DNA of 64,000 nt, from the sequence record MN850611.1. The stretch is one strand, 5' to 3'. The translations under genes and the position numbers were made by a program. The notes below the pieces were generated by a model, which did not search any database, had not been told where the DNA came from, and saw only the letters and a program-made list of their open reading frames with translations. Shown piece after piece: positions 869 through 6,213 of the stretch. Within the stretch, counting starts at the first letter, position 1; the number at the start of each line of letters is the position of its first letter. The stretch comes from Escherichia phage nataliec.

Positions 869-945
869 CTCTGTTTAGCTCAGCTTGGTAGAGCGTTCCG
901 TTTGGGGCGGTAAGGCCGGAGGTTCAAGTCCTCCAACAGAGACCA
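869..945 (+). tRNA. tRNA-Pro (anticodon TGG), CCA encoded
   Basis: hand-folded cloverleaf: acceptor ctctgtt/aacagag, D-arm gctc..gagc, anticodon loop tttgggg, T-arm ggagg-ttcaagt-cctcc. Confidence 0.75.
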
Positions 946-962
946 AATTTAAAGGGGTTACT

Positions 963-1319
963 ATGAGATTTTTAAAAGAATGTCCAGTTCATGGTTTAAC
1001 TGAACATAGCATTCATAAGAATGGTAACGCCGGTAATAGAGTAAATTGTCTAAAATGTTGTGCATTAAGGACAAAACTTAGAGAGAATGCCAATAGAGAG
1101 AAAGCATATAAGCTTTATGGCGATAGCTGCAAAATTTGTGGCTATAATAAATGTAAAAATGCTTTAGAATGGCATCACCTTAACCCAAACGAAAAAGAGA
1201 ATACACCATCAAAACTTATGGGTGCATCTTGGGAAAAGGTTAAAAAAGAACTTGATAAATGTGTTTTGCTATGTGCTAATTGCCACAGAGAGGTTCATAG
1301 CGGAATTACAATGATTTAA
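963..1319 (+). CDS. HNH homing endonuclease
   Basis: ORF in track frame 885-1319 trimmed to first ATG (MRFLKE) downstream of tRNA-Pro; HNH motif 'EWHHLNP...CANCHREVH'. Confidence 0.7.
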   Translation: MRFLKECPVHGLTEHSIHKNGNAGNRVNCLKCCALRTKLRENANREKAYKLYGDSCKICGYNKCKNALEWHHLNPNEKENTPSKLMGASWEKVKKELDKCVLLCANCHREVHSGITMI

Positions 1320-1320
1320 T

Positions 1321-1395
1321 GTCGTAGAAGGCAAATGGTTAGCCACCTGACCTTCAATCAGTTGCTCGCAGGTTCGAATCCTGTCTACGACACCA
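1321..1395 (+). tRNA. tRNA, probable Glu (anticodon TTC) with C at position 33; CCA encoded
   Basis: acceptor gtcgtag/ctacgac, T-arm gcagg-ttcgaat-cctgt, anticodon loop ccttcaa closed by 4-bp stem. Confidence 0.55.
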
Positions 1396-1487
1396 GTTTT
1401 GACAGAAGACCAATTACAGCAAACTTAATCTTATTCATCTGAAGGTAAATCGGACAAAGAAGATATTTGGTCTGGTCATTAAGAATT

Positions 1488-1563
1488 GCGGGTATAGAGA
1501 AAGGGCGTCTCACATGTCTCATTAGCATGGTATCGGCAGGTTCGACTCCTGCACCCGCCTCCA
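1488..1563 (+). tRNA. tRNA with CAT anticodon (Met/fMet or Ile2-lysidine type)
   Basis: anticodon arm catgt-ctcatta-gcatg, D-stem gaga/tctc, T-loop ttcgact, 3' CCA; acceptor register slightly ambiguous. Confidence 0.6.
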
Positions 1564-1646
1564 AATTTACAGAAGACCGTTTACAGCAATATTTATTAAA
1601 TTTTTAGCGGAAAAATTGAAAGATACGGTCTGGTAATACTAAACAT

Positions 1647-1723
1647 GGTTAGGAAGCACATAAGGTATGTGCGGTCGCCTGTTAAGCGAATGGCACAGGG
1701 TTCGAATCCCTGACTAACCGCCA
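1647..1723 (+). tRNA. tRNA-Asn (GTT)
   Basis: anticodon loop ctgttaa, T-arm caggg-ttcgaat-ccctg, acceptor ggttag(g)/(a)ctaacc, CCA encoded. Confidence 0.7.
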
Positions 1724-1792
1724 AATTTAGGAGAGAAGCGATTGCTCACCGATTTGTAAGGTGCAAGTCCTTAGCCTGAATAGAAATTAAAT

Positions 1793-1880
1793 GTGTCGTT
1801 ATCCCGTAGATGGTAGCGGTGGGGACTGTAAATCCCTTGTCATTGAGACTCGGTAGGTTCGACTCCTACACGGCACACCA
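1793..1880 (+). tRNA. tRNA-Tyr (GTA), type II long variable arm
   Basis: acceptor gtgtcgt/acggcac, anticodon arm gggga-ctgtaaa-tccct, 88 nt, CCA encoded. Confidence 0.75.
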
Positions 1881-1885
1881 ATAAA

Positions 1886-1963
1886 GGTTATGTAGTTTAA
1901 TTTGGTTAAAATACTCCCCTGTCACGGGAGATGATGAGGGTTCAAATCCCTTCATAACCGCCA
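1886..1963 (+). tRNA. tRNA-Asp (GTC)
   Basis: acceptor ggttatg/cataacc, anticodon arm ctccc-ctgtcac-gggag, T-loop ttcaaat, CCA. Confidence 0.8.
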
Positions 1964-2166
1964 ATTTTGAGAGGGCTATTTAGCCCCTCCCTTAAAGAGT
2001 TCTTACGAGTATTCTTTAAAGGAGCAGAAGACCAAATTCAGCAAGTTACTTAAAATTTCAAGCCAATTTAATTTTGAAAAATTTAAAACTTGGTCTGGCT
2101 CAACAAATTTACAGAAGACCGTTTACAGCAAAACTTAAACAATCTATTTCTCGGTAAAGAAAAGGC

Positions 2167-2218
2167 GAAGGTTCGATTCCTTCACTCGGCAGATGTCGAG
2201 TTGGTGTAATGGTAGCAC
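2167..2218 (+). other. tRNA-like fragment: T-arm hairpin plus acceptor-like hairpin plus D-arm-like segment in permuted order (no complete cloverleaf)
   Basis: gaagg-ttcgatt-ccttc (2167-2183) followed by actcggc-agat-gtcgagt hairpin (2184-2201) and tggtgtaatggtagcac (2202-2218). Confidence 0.4.
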
Positions 2219-2243
2219 TTAAGATGATAAACAACGGTCTGGT

Positions 2244-2387
2244 AATTATCTTTGTAGATAAGTTATTAAGCTTACCTGTGAGTATGCGACCACAAAGGGT
2301 GAAAGGGTAAATTCTAGATTTAAACCCAAAAAGGCACATCGCTACAGACCTTAAGCAAGTCTGGGTAGCTTATCTACAAAGATAATT
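2244..2387 (+). repeat. 19-bp perfect inverted repeat (aattatctttgtagataag / cttatctacaaagataatt) enclosing a 106-nt unit
   Basis: arms at 2244-2262 and 2369-2387 are exact reverse complements. Confidence 0.7.
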
Positions 2388-4853: not shown

Positions 4854-4861
4854 AGATTTAA

Positions 4862-4937
4862 AGGGGATTAGTTTACAAGGTTAAAACCTCGGTCTTTGAA
4901 ATCGAAGAAGTTGGTTCAATTCCAACATCCCCCGCCA
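4862..4937 (+). tRNA. tRNA-Gln (TTG)
   Basis: anticodon arm tcggt-ctttgaa-atcga, T-arm gttgg-ttcaatt-ccaac, acceptor (a)ggggat/atccccc with 1:72 mismatch, CCA. Confidence 0.65.
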
Positions 4938-4939
4938 AT

Positions 4940-5018
4940 GCTCCATTACTCCAATTGGCAGAGAGGCCAGACTTAAAATCTGTGTTATGTATCGGTTCGA
5001 ATCCGATATGGAGTACCA
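4940..5018 (+). tRNA. tRNA with Leu anticodon TAA, type I architecture
   Basis: acceptor gctccat/atggagt, anticodon arm ccaga-cttaaaa-tctgt, 7-nt variable loop, T-arm atcgg-ttcgaat-ccgat, A73, CCA. Confidence 0.65.
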
Positions 5019-5023
5019 AATTT

Positions 5024-5099
5024 AGCGGTATAGCATAACTGGCAATGCAGCAGTCTCTGAAGCTGTCTTATTAAGGTTCAAATCCTTATGCCGCTGCCA
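5024..5099 (+). tRNA. tRNA-Gln (CTG)
   Basis: acceptor agcggta/tgccgct, anticodon arm gcagt-ctctgaa-gctgt, T-loop ttcaaat, CCA. Confidence 0.7.
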
Positions 5100-5130
5100 C
5101 TTCTAAGGATTCTTACGAGAGTCCTTAAAT

Positions 5131-5206
5131 GTGGCCTTATCATAAATGGTAATGACCCATGCTGTGAACATGGTCTATACGGGTTCAAATCCCGTAGGTC
5201 ACCCCA
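5131..5206 (+). tRNA. tRNA-His (GTG)
   Basis: acceptor gtggcct/aggtcac, perfect anticodon arm ccatg-ctgtgaa-catgg, T-arm acggg-ttcaaat-cccgt, C73, CCA. Confidence 0.8.
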
Positions 5207-5211
5207 ATTTA

Positions 5212-5286
5212 TAGTCCAAGTAGCTTATATGGTTAAAGCGCGTGTCTGAAAAACATGAGAAGAGGGTTCAAATCCCACTGGACTAC
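5212..5286 (+). tRNA. tRNA-Phe (GAA)
   Basis: acceptor tagtcca/tggacta, anticodon arm cgtgt-ctgaaaa-acatg, T-loop ttcaaat; CCA not clearly encoded. Confidence 0.7.
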
Positions 5287-5304
5287 CAATTTCAAAGGTG
5301 CTTA

Positions 5305-6039
5305 ATGAAAGAGATGACAGAACAAGGTAAGGAGATTTTTAATCTCTTAAAAACTGGTAAAGGGTTTTCTAACCCCCTTATTACTGGTGCAGCAGTTCTC
5401 GGTGGAACCGTAGCTGCCTCTACATCACTTGTAAGCTCTATTAGTTCTGTATCAGACCCTACAGTAAAAGATAAGCTTGTTGCTGCTGGACTTACAACAG
5501 TTCTGCTTAACAGCTTTACCACGAGTCTGAAAAGCACTACATCAACTACCAAAACACTGACAGATTACGGTCAAAAGTCCATTGATGAGTTTTCATCACG
5601 TATGCAGGTAGCAAAAGGTTATTCTAATGTTATGGGTGCAGCAGGTGAACAAGTTGGCTGTACACCATTTAGTGGTATTATGGGTGTTGCTACAGAGTAT
5701 GGTCAAAAAGCTATTGATACGATTAACAGTGCACTAGACGGTGTTAATGATGTATTAAGTGATTTACAAGACGCTATTGACAAAGGTCTTGATACTATTT
5801 CTGATTTAGCTAACCAAGCTGTTAGTAAGATTAATGAAGGTATCTCGAAGATTACAGCTTATGCAGATGAAGTTGTGCAGATGATTGAAGCAGAAGCTGC
5901 CCTTATTGCAGAGTACCTTAAAACGAATATCAATGGGTTCTTAGCAGGTATCTTACCAGACTGGTTTGATGATGCTTGTAAAACTGGTGTAATTGACACT
6001 ATTGCAACACCAGAAATGAAGAACGCATTACAGAAATAA
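5305..6039 (+). CDS. hypothetical protein (Ser/Thr-rich N-half, coiled-coil-like C-half)
   Basis: track ORF 5242-6039 trimmed to ATG at 5305 just after tRNA-Phe. Confidence 0.5.
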   Translation: MKEMTEQGKEIFNLLKTGKGFSNPLITGAAVLGGTVAASTSLVSSISSVSDPTVKDKLVAAGLTTVLLNSFTTSLKSTTSTTKTLTDYGQKSIDEFSSRMQVAKGYSNVMGAAGEQVGCTPFSGIMGVATEYGQKAIDTINSALDGVNDVLSDLQDAIDKGLDTISDLANQAVSKINEGISKITAYADEVVQMIEAEAALIAEYLKTNINGFLAGILPDWFDDACKTGVIDTIATPEMKNALQK

Positions 6040-6040
6040 T

Positions 6041-6133
6041 GGAAGATTAACCCTAAAAGGTAAGGGAGCAGTTTGCTAAACTGCCAGTAGCTGAGAAATC
6101 GGTGTACCAGTTCAAGTCTGGTATCTTCCTCCA
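6041..6133 (+). tRNA. tRNA-Ser (GCT), type II
   Basis: acceptor ggaagat/atcttcc perfect, anticodon arm gcagt-ttgctaa-actgc, long variable arm, T-arm accag-ttcaagt-ctggt, CCA. Confidence 0.8.
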
Positions 6134-6137
6134 ATTT

Positions 6138-6213
6138 GAATCCGTGACAGAAATGGCTATGTGCCTGTCTGCAAAACAGGTTTATAAGGGTTCGAGTCCC
6201 TTCGGATTCTCCA
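6138..6213 (+). tRNA. tRNA-Cys (GCA)
   Basis: acceptor gaatccg/cggattc perfect, anticodon arm cctgt-ctgcaaa-acagg, T-arm aaggg-ttcgagt-ccctt, CCA. Confidence 0.8.

Follow-up and report, generated by a model that had tools for sequence, protein, structure and literature searches.

Does the dense array of transfer RNA (tRNA) genes at positions 869 to 6213 of Escherichia phage nataliec (sequence record MN850611.1) supply all 20 amino-acid specificities, and what would such a set do for the phage? In the present study, we analysed this cluster within a window of 64,000 nucleotides (nt), which is the whole stretch of DNA under study. The original prediction, a hand annotation of the letters, had counted about 27 tRNA genes and proposed a full complement of specificities. 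We found 27 tRNA-like genes with anticodons for all 20 amino acids, but completeness hangs on a non-canonical tRNA-Trp-like gene, and the published count for the related phage Sf14 is 19 amino acids (PMC12482277). The best explanation, and in our judgement a highly probable one, is a Felix O1-type cluster that would act as a tRNA supply built as a minimal decoder. The genes, their anticodons and their conserved structures can be read directly in the genomes compared, and so can the way in which they take the place of canonical alleles, either at one site or between sister genera.

For detection of the genes, ARAGORN and the Rfam tRNA model (RF00005) were used, and a gene was taken as canonical when it reached the RF00005 gathering score (at least 29 bits) or was called by ARAGORN with default settings. 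Default ARAGORN gave 24 tRNAs on the plus strand between 869 and 6213 (Pro, CAU twice, Asn, Tyr, Asp, Lys UUU and CUU, Ile, Ser twice, Leu three times, Ala, Gly, Thr, Val, Arg ACG, Gln twice, His, Phe and Cys), covering 18 amino acids, without Glu and Trp. The Rfam model at its gathering score also gave 24, all within the cluster; it gained Glu and the second Arg and dropped the first CAU tRNA and Tyr. The union of the two holds 26 tRNAs, and these 26 of the 27 genes count as canonical in the sense given; the Trp-like gene at 3099-3181 does not and needs relaxed searches. No tRNA was predicted in the other 58 kilobases (kb) of the window by default ARAGORN or at the Rfam gathering score, and additional calls of relaxed ARAGORN, within open reading frames (ORFs) and on the minus strand, were treated as noise. 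The hand annotation was therefore accurate, including its question marks at Glu and Trp: there are 27 tRNA-like genes on the plus strand of 869-6213 with all the anticodons it had named, and the terminal CCA, which it had ascribed to most genes, is encoded by 26 of the 27 (tRNA-Ser UGA has CCU). It had also stated that substantially fewer tRNAs or missing isotypes in software predictions would speak against a full set, and here the outcome depends on the tool, since default ARAGORN misses Glu and Trp and the union gives 26. The genes are as follows; lines without a remark were called by both ARAGORN and Rfam.

869-945, plus strand, tRNA-Pro (UGG); ARAGORN, Rfam 57.7 bits
1321-1395, plus strand, tRNA-Glu (UUC), anticodon loop CCUUCAA with C33 for U33; Rfam 55.4 bits over 1321-1392
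1487-1563, plus strand, CAU tRNA copy 1, with a U1.C72 mismatch and U37; ARAGORN, below the Rfam gathering score
1647-1723, plus strand, tRNA-Asn (GUU)
1793-1880, plus strand, tRNA-Tyr (GUA); ARAGORN, Rfam below gathering score
1886-1963, plus strand, tRNA-Asp (GUC)
2392-2467, plus strand, tRNA-Lys (UUU); ARAGORN, Rfam (54-62 bits for this gene and the next two)
2472-2548, plus strand, CAU tRNA copy 2
2550-2625, plus strand, tRNA-Ile (GAU); ARAGORN, Rfam, a complete 62-bit tRNA
2874-2955, plus strand, D-arm-less tRNA-Arg (UCU), D arm replaced by UAUCUCA, with a 23-nt conserved extra region; Rfam 31.7 bits (2874-2952)
3099-3181, plus strand, non-canonical tRNA-Trp-like gene (CCA), 83 nt; ARAGORN in metazoan-mitochondrial mode, tRNA-Sec model sub-threshold
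3195-3284, plus strand, tRNA-Ser (UGA)
3540-3617, plus strand, tRNA-Leu (UAG)
3625-3700, plus strand, tRNA-Lys (CUU)
3707-3782, plus strand, tRNA-Ala (UGC)
3789-3863, plus strand, tRNA-Gly (UCC)
3870-3946, plus strand, tRNA-Thr (UGU)
4042-4116, plus strand, tRNA-Val (UAC)
4118-4195, plus strand, tRNA-Leu (CAA)
4201-4276, plus strand, tRNA-Arg (ACG)
4862-4937, plus strand, tRNA-Gln (UUG), with an A1.C72 mismatch; ARAGORN, Rfam
4940-5018, plus strand, tRNA-Leu (UAA)
5024-5099, plus strand, tRNA-Gln (CUG)
5131-5206, plus strand, tRNA-His (GUG)
5213-5288, plus strand, tRNA-Phe (GAA)
6041-6133, plus strand, tRNA-Ser (GCU)
6138-6213, plus strand, tRNA-Cys (GCA)

A four-arm cloverleaf with an acceptor stem of 7 base pairs (bp) and a T stem of 5 bp is formed by 25 of the 27 genes, the exceptions being Arg UCU and the Trp-like gene. 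The anticodon loops have U33 in 26 and a purine at position 37 in 26 of the 27 and are fully canonical in 24; the three deviating loops are those of Glu (C33), the first CAU tRNA (U37) and the Trp-like gene, whose loop is closed by C.A or C.C.

As a whole, the cluster has been described before. When positions 700-6700 of the window were compared by megablast with GenBank phages, 352 records matched and 207 of them covered at least 80% of the query. Salmonella phage Meda matched best, at 97.3% identity over 99%, and after it came numerous Felixounavirus genomes of Escherichia and Salmonella; the best 20 of the 352 records, Felixounavirus, had 92-100% query coverage and 94-98% identity, and Felix O1 itself matched at 96.7% identity. 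The tRNA gene order is that of Meda, ST11, REP7, Sf14 and Felix O1. Since the annotated relatives have the same tRNA string, flanked on one side by the gene of a DUF2828 'RNA-binding protein' and on the other by that of the large terminase, the object is the known Felix O1-type tRNA cluster. By its sequence, the window is a Felixounavirus with a cluster typical of the Felix O1-like phages (Ounavirinae) of Escherichia coli (E. coli) and Salmonella, published for Felix O1 and relatives and part of ordinary phage biology. The Felix O1 cluster was described in 2010 with 22 tRNAs (PMC3185647), and that of the Shigella phage Sf14, a Mooglevirus, in 2025 with 26 tRNAs for 19 amino acids (PMC12482277). 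Locus and gene order are the same in both as in the window, with sequence identity as given above for the Felixounavirus records, and so are the flanks, with a Ro60-like gene upstream and the terminase downstream. Both published counts omit the Trp-like gene and the Felix O1 count also omits the D-arm-less Arg, although both genes are present in Felix O1 itself. Among virulent phages, T4, T5 and mycobacteriophage Bxz1 are known for large tRNA sets. The cluster resembles these in having its tRNA genes on one strand of an A/T-rich genome, with genes for homing endonucleases and for small stable RNAs among them (PMC6409571); unlike them, it has a Ro60-like gene directly upstream, and Y-RNA-like RNAs and an RNA resembling transfer-messenger RNA (tmRNA) lie between its tRNAs.

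The answer to the question of completeness depends on the unusual genes, one of which is the tRNA-Arg (UCU). In its Rfam alignment the D arm is deleted and 20 nt are inserted after the anticodon arm. The close relatives REP7 and Sf14 have a canonical tRNA-Arg UCU at this exact position and the D-arm-less allele is absent from both genomes; the canonical and D-arm-less alleles are mutually exclusive at one site. The D-arm-less sequence was also found at 83-90% identity in unrelated phages, including a jumbo phage, a Mydovirus, rV5-like phages and a Kuravirus. A pattern scan of IMG/VR gave 25 distinct variants, with the anticodon UCU in 24 and CCU in one (L167), always a reader of AGR codons. 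The linker UAUCUCA was invariant across the 25 variants though it lies outside the search pattern, and all three stems covary; in the alignment of five families, 100% of cells pair and seven pairs have changed on both sides. From these comparisons of sequence, we conclude that the D-arm-less tRNA-Arg represents a real, conserved class. In the 2010 study of Felix O1, a tRNA for Arg[AGA] was expected but absent (PMC3185647). Felix O1 carries the D-arm-less allele, and the 'missing' tRNA is therefore explained.

Two other interpretations of this gene were tried and rejected. Relaxed ARAGORN reads 2874-2955 as tRNA-Ala (CGC), and the covariation backs the GCGGU/ACCGC hairpin with UCU in its loop; G3.U70 occurs in some of the homologs only. 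The gene was also considered as the tRNA-like domain of the adjacent tmRNA-like RNA, and each of the two occurs independently in other phages; relatives with the canonical tRNA-Arg retain the tmRNA-like RNA. The closest structural parallel is the D-arm-less tRNA-Ser (AGY/AGN) of animal mitochondria, in which a short loop joins the acceptor and anticodon stems and AGN codons are read. Unlike it, the phage class has the 23-nt extra region after the anticodon arm, a normal T arm and Arg anticodons; it occurs in enterobacterial phages and gives no sign of common descent with the mitochondrial tRNA. Our searches of the open-access literature returned no account of a D-arm-less phage tRNA. The contigs that carry the D-arm-less gene (loci L009-L012 and L151-L173, from IMG/VR and GenBank phages) are 20-360 kb long; jumbo phages, Vequintavirinae and Kuravirus are among them, and the gene is annotated there as nothing or as 'tRNA-OTHER'.

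The Trp-like gene also departs from the norm. It has an 8-bp acceptor stem and a 4-bp T stem (a 12-bp stack), a 26-nt D region and a short variable loop, and positions 31 and 39 are always mismatched (C.A or C.C), which leaves an effective anticodon loop of 9 nt. A 7/5 reading of the stems, with G8 and an A49.C65 mismatch, is an alternative to 8+4, because those bases never vary. A 96-nt region with the gene matches 235 phage records of Felixounavirus, Mooglevirus, Suspvirus and Pectobacterium phage Wc4-1, and in all 40 matches listed from these 235 records it is unannotated or 'hypothetical protein'. Ten distinct sequences were compared, and the anticodon CCA, the T loop and the G73-CCA end are invariant. 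The stems vary and keep pairing: the anticodon stem changes from AACGG/CCGUU to GUAAG/CUUAC or GUAGG/CCUAC, a T-stem pair from G-C to U-A, and the first two acceptor pairs from AU/UA to GC/CG. In total, 99.5% of cells are paired and seven pairs show compensatory changes, against none in the slid-partner controls. The identity elements of the E. coli tryptophanyl-tRNA synthetase (TrpRS) are A1-U72, G73 and CCA; the 1-72 pair is A1-U72, or G.U or G-C, among the homologs. A functional tRNA-Trp is the most economical reading of this gene, and on these sequence features we consider it reasonably probable.

In the sister genus Kolesnikvirus, the Erwinia phage Hena2 has a tRNA-Trp CCA of canonical length instead. 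The two share a GGC-UUCCAAA-CCC core and a weak bottom pair of the anticodon stem, and the Felix-type RNA aligns to the Hena2 tRNA with a 9-nt insertion in the D loop. The Hena2 cluster (locus L175, 2455-5745) holds, besides this canonical tRNA-Trp, a canonical tRNA-Arg UCU and three CAU tRNAs; Glu and Cys were not called. From this gene content it follows that the tRNA content of the subfamily turns over via allele replacement and not by simple loss.

The main alternative to a complete set is that the Trp-like RNA, and possibly the D-arm-less Arg, are tRNA-derived RNAs without a role in decoding (decoys, partners of Ro60, processing signals or decaying pseudogenes), so that the set would cover 19 amino acids, the number given in the Sf14 paper (PMC12482277). 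The Trp-like RNA gives some ground for this: RF00005 does not match 3099-3181 even at E values up to 10, the tRNA-Sec model reaches 23 bits against a cut-off of 47, and the D region, the unpaired 31-39 and the 8+4 stems are aberrant. Moreover, the cluster holds an unchargeable tRNA mimic, the Y-RNA-like repeat R4 described below. A pseudogene, however, would not keep an invariant anticodon, G73-CCA and T loop with covarying stems across Felixounavirus, Mooglevirus, Suspvirus and Wc4-1, and the Trp-like RNA retains the TrpRS identity elements in the forms given above. All 25 variants of the Arg class have an anticodon for AGR codons, and the class and the canonical tRNA-Arg replace one another at the same locus. 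On balance we hold a non-decoding role to be possible but doubtful, and prefer functional tRNAs for both genes.

The third unusual gene is tRNA-Glu (UUC), seen by ARAGORN at the relaxed threshold only, probably because of its C33 loop. Two alleles exist at this site among Ounavirinae. The CCUUCAA allele is found in the window, in Meda and in the distant Pectobacterium phage Wc4-1, with compensatory changes in the acceptor and T stems among the three; judged from this alignment, Glu is a conserved gene with an unusual loop. For the two CAU tRNAs, sequence features led to no assignment as Met, formylmethionine or Ile2. A 1-72 mismatch is a formylation determinant of initiator tRNA, and the first CAU tRNA has such a mismatch but not the GGG/CCC anticodon stem; it might be an initiator-like species. 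The pairs C4-G69 and C5-G68, which are TilS determinants, are missing from both.

The design of the set is regular. Seven four-codon boxes each have a single U34 tRNA, and CGN has ACG; G34 serves all eight pyrimidine-ending two-codon sets and U34 the five purine-ending ones. The extras are three C34 tRNAs (Lys, Gln, Leu), the two CAU tRNAs and the one CCA. The Lys, Gln and Leu isoacceptors, taken as duplicates in the original prediction, are ordinary U34/C34 pairs for NNA and NNG codons and are not redundant. Codon coverage was computed on the 63 ORFs of the window (17,138 codons). Under strict wobble 45 of the 61 sense codons are read, equal to 76% of usage; if U34 reads whole boxes, this rises to 59 of 61 and 99.7%. 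The modification cmo5U34 allows enterobacterial tRNAs to read U as well, and in some cases C. Under wide wobble only ATA and CGG go unread, which make up 4% of Ile and 1% of Arg codons, respectively, and are among the rarest; third-position GC is 32% in these ORFs, and ATA is rare despite this. AGA is the commonest Arg codon, with 40% of Arg codons. The set looks like a minimal complete decoder. Coverage of 20 amino acids, as proposed at the outset, is plausible from the anticodons and would hold only if the non-canonical Trp, Arg and Glu genes really work.

These features suggest how the cluster may serve the phage. Transcription seems to start at host-type promoters, and the transcripts seem to be processed into about 27 tRNAs. 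These would match the A/T-rich codons of the phage, so that phage translation could continue when host tRNAs are scarce, degraded or cleaved. A virulent A/T-rich phage would thereby bring a compact decoder fitting its own codon usage and keep up translation late in infection, and the Glu with C33, the D-arm-less Arg (UCU) and the 8+4 Trp (CCA) would be non-canonical versions of ordinary decoders. Codon differences between phage and host have been reported for Felix O1 and Sf14, and both analyses favoured supply (PMC3185647, PMC12482277).

Several points weigh against this explanation. Expression, processing, charging and decoding of the cluster tRNAs are what we infer from the genes. The Trp-like gene is missed by default tRNA finders and by the annotations examined, besides its lack of a match to RF00005. 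GGU and GGC are the commonest Gly codons in the window ORFs, and to our knowledge U34 of E. coli tRNA-Gly UCC is not expected to read them; real coverage is therefore probably nearer the lower bound. Depending on what the two CAU tRNAs are, an initiator or an AUA reader may be missing. In Sf14, anticodon and tRNAscan isotype model conflict in 14 of 26 tRNAs (PMC12482277), and the tRNAs of the related phage Bas63 were mostly non-essential in laboratory hosts (PMC11482910). If the cluster gives independence from host tRNA pools, as had been suggested, the synthetases and modification enzymes would all still be those of the host.

A different emphasis is that the cluster is kept mainly as counter-defence, with altered phage tRNAs escaping the anticodon nucleases of the host. 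The oddities do lie at sites relevant to nucleases: C33 in Glu, U37 in the first CAU tRNA, the 9-nt effective loop of Trp and the rebuilt body of Arg UCU. Mycobacteriophage tRNAs with mutated loops are reported to resist host nucleases (PMC10264068), and in Bas63 the Ro60-like gene next to the tRNAs counteracts the defence system Ppl (PMC11482910). Most loops, however, are fully canonical, the window analysis pointed to no target nuclease, and the Sf14 study found no support for counter-defence in that phage (PMC12482277). We consider counter-defence unlikely as the main reason for the cluster; it is compatible with the supply model, which remains our preferred explanation.

The weakest alternative, very improbable in our estimate, is that the tRNA-Trp (CCA) does more than decode UGG and reads UGA as a near-cognate codon, in the manner of a Hirsh-like or short-stem-like suppressor: tRNA-Trp CCA with an unpinned anticodon-stem pair or D-arm changes reads UGA in E. 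coli and protists, and bottom-unpinned variants exist in bacteria, unstudied (PMC13092985), and the phage RNA has the unpaired 31-39 and a rebuilt D/hinge region, but the demonstrated effect on UGA reading concerns the top pair (27-43), as in top-unpinned variants with a 4-bp stem, and not the bottom one. TGA ends 11 of the 63 window ORFs, a use that speaks against suppression; of these stops, three are directly followed by a second stop and seven more by one within 2-8 codons, which would suit a leaky UGA. A gene interrupted by an in-frame TGA was looked for among the window ORFs and none was seen. The directly doubled stops read TGATAG or TGATAA, and the TGA ends concerned include those at 8257-8265, 45327-45335 and 48249-48257; these close second stops may be chance or a back-up for leaky UGA termination.

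The practical value of the cluster is corrective: standard finders and the annotations examined miss one or two conserved unusual tRNA genes, and with them the stated complement changes from 19 to 20 amino acids. Provided that the D-arm-less Arg and the 8+4 Trp RNA are charged and take part in translation, they would be natural examples of the extent to which the body of a bacterial-type tRNA can be remodelled while remaining functional with E. coli enzymes, with a bearing on tRNA engineering and on phage evasion of tRNA-targeting defences. The tmRNA-like and Y-RNA-like genes in the gaps are more surprising content than the tRNAs. With them, a wider and tentative reading can be drawn, to which we give limited credence: an RNA island downstream of the Ro60-like gene through which the phage would take over translation and RNA quality control, with the D-arm-less Arg (UCU/CCU), the 8+4 Trp, a tmRNA body that lacks the tRNA-like domain, and the four Y-RNA-like repeats. 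If it is true, the minimal decoder for 20 amino acids would be made complete by the Trp and by the Arg class, found in at least five phage lineages, the tmRNA body would redirect or compete with host trans-translation, and the Y-RNA-like repeats would partner the Ro60-like protein.

The Ro60-like gene and the repeats in the gaps between the first tRNA genes are these.

20-703, plus strand, 3' part of the DUF2828/DUF7788 'RNA-binding protein' gene, Ro60-like, directly upstream of the cluster
1400-1478, plus strand, Y-RNA-like repeat R1; common ends CAGAAGACCNN...NNGGUCUGG, fold
1567-1636, plus strand, Y-RNA-like repeat R2; repeat alignment, fold
2022-2101, plus strand, Y-RNA-like repeat R3; repeat alignment, fold
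2109-2245, plus strand, Y-RNA-like repeat R4, with an internal YrlA-like tRNA-like domain; fold, alignment of six phages

The full-length Sf14 ortholog of the gene has the Pfam domains DUF2828 and DUF7788 and belongs to PHROG 850 ('RNA-binding protein'). When PDB was searched with the protein sequence, there was no match; its likeness to Ro60 comes from Bas63, where gp130, encoded upstream of the tRNAs of that phage, is reported to be structurally Ro60-like (PMC11482910). The four repeats lie 0.7-1.5 kb downstream of the gene and are built alike, with an outer helix of 4 bp that covaries, an internal loop of the form AGA/G and an inner helix AGACCNN/NNGGUCU; the motif UUACAGCAA is also common to all four. 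They occur only within the cluster; they are syntenic in five of five relatives in which the Ro60-like gene adjoins the cluster and absent in two of two in which it does not. Inside the terminal stem of R4 is a tRNA-like domain in the order variable arm, T arm, closed acceptor-like stem and D arm, and the acceptor-like stem has a compensatory change in the alignment of six phages. R1-R3 have the terminal stem as in R4, but without the tRNA-like domain.

R4 resembles YrlA (PMC4201824) in the order of this domain within a terminal stem. A YrlA-type RNA would be expected on the strand of a Ro60 ortholog and within 4 kb of it; R4 lies on the same strand as, and 1.4 kb downstream of, a gene whose likeness to Ro60 comes from Bas63. 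Unlike YrlA, R1-R4 lack, by inspection, the GNCGAAN0-1G motif and have a conserved 5' motif CAGAAGACCNNUUACAGCAA instead; R4 has its own conserved ends, CAGAAGACC...GGUCUGG, and the neighbouring protein is DUF2828/DUF7788 and not an annotated TROVE protein. In the PhageMaP preprint, it was guessed that some of the annotated tRNAs of Bas63 might be Y RNAs (PMC11482910). The unannotated repeats R1-R4 seem better Y-RNA candidates than annotated tRNAs.

The tmRNA-like RNA and its promoter lie between tRNA-Ile and the D-arm-less tRNA-Arg.

2641-2669, plus strand, strong sigma-70-like promoter (TTGACA, 17-nt spacer, TATAGT); 11 of 12 consensus matches, the best in the region
2676-2867, plus strand, tmRNA-like RNA; 5' end AGUUUUCG at 2676, body to 2833, 3' hairpin 2835-2867

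In common with tmRNA (ssrA), the RNA begins its tag at a GCA resume codon; the tag has 10 codons, is of the ANDENYALAA type and ends in a hydrophobic, Ala-rich C-terminus, a hairpin carries the stop codon, and pseudoknots follow downstream. The tag frame at 2719-2751 reads GCA AAC GAC AAU GUU UUU CUG GCA GUA GCU UGA, that is ANDNVFLAVA and stop, and the second of two pseudoknots ends at 2833. The stretch also matches genomes of unrelated phage groups, namely Kuttervirus, T5-like, Schitoviridae and many siphoviral genomes, including contigs of 40-50 kb. A pattern scan of the tag frame gave at least 142 matches in viral loci. Among the matches listed, the 10-codon frame is kept in 141 of 142, the exception, L115 (ANDTCLIPSSIS), being a false positive; 19 peptides were read from these 142, and 18 keep the frame (for example ANDDVVLMAA, ANDNVFLAVA, ANEEMYLAVA and ANDEQFLAVA). 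In Hena2 the changes in the tag frame are synonymous, and in the stop-codon hairpin and the two pseudoknots 17 of 25 tested pairs have compensatory changes. The Rfam tmRNA models score 13-29 bits, below their cut-offs.

The other half of a tmRNA, an acceptor stem with G3.U70, a T arm and a CCA 3' end, was not found with ARAGORN, Rfam or a partner search. ARAGORN called no tmRNA at this element in the window or in eight homologous loci, and no strand complementary to the 5' region was consistent within 1.5 kb across 93 loci. The promoter sets the 5' end at the position given above and there is therefore no room for an acceptor strand. The tmRNA that ARAGORN calls in swi2 (L014, 816-1190) is spurious, as it borrows the 3' end of a tRNA-Met and has a bogus tag. 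An Rfam 'permuted tmRNA' with the 3' half of tRNA-Ile as acceptor was also rejected, since the tRNA-Ile is complete and no matching 5' acceptor strand precedes the tmRNA-like RNA.

In the 2014 census of tmRNA, phage ssrA was found only in mycobacteriophages and Bacillus phage G, with a gene of the tRNA-like domain only in mycobacteriophage DS6A (PMC4131195); the RNA of the window is the converse, a body without the domain. Our open-access literature searches gave no account of such a phage tmRNA. It might be a competitor or decoy for host trans-translation, or half of an unrecognised split system. In siphoviral contigs (L014 swi2, L043, L137, L141, L150), the tmRNA-like RNA is flanked by modules, which a long imperfect stem, CACAAC-A-GGUAAGAGCAUU ... 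AGUGCUCUUUCC-GUUGUG, encloses; a tRNA or a T-arm-like hairpin is present in some of them. The arrangement seems to be a further type of small-RNA array in phages.

The remaining features are three ORFs and candidate signals at the ends of the cluster.

722-750 and 813-842, plus strand, two sigma-70-like promoters upstream of tRNA-Pro, 10 of 12 consensus matches each; consensus matches only
963-1319, plus strand, HNH homing endonuclease gene between tRNA-Pro and tRNA-Glu; Pfam HNH, E 8.9e-5, so annotated in Meda
4296-4853, plus strand, DUF7338 ORF of unknown function with a hydrophobic N-terminus; Pfam E 1.3e-61, PHROG 2143
5305-6039, plus strand, DUF7217 ORF of unknown function; Pfam E 3.3e-89, PHROG 2114
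6379-6404, plus strand, terminator-like hairpin and T run downstream of the cluster; consensus scan

The three interrupting ORFs had been noted before, and Pfam agrees with them as HNH endonuclease, DUF7338 and DUF7217. The HNH insertion is polymorphic: it is present in the window and Meda and not in Sf14, REP7 or PC79-13, and in Sf14 and REP7 tRNA-Pro and tRNA-Glu are 6-7 nt apart (compared loci L003 1664-1671 and L004 1733-1741). Other Felixounaviruses, such as Alf5 and VpaE1_ev78, have endonuclease genes at different gaps of the cluster. About one fifth of the cluster region is unannotated structured RNA. The intergenic stretches 2251-2380, 2956-3098, 3449-3538 and 3951-4037 have fold z-scores of -2.5 to -4.0 against shuffled controls and could be processing hairpins or further small RNAs; 2956-3098 is nearly invariant among the window, Meda, REP7 and Sf14.

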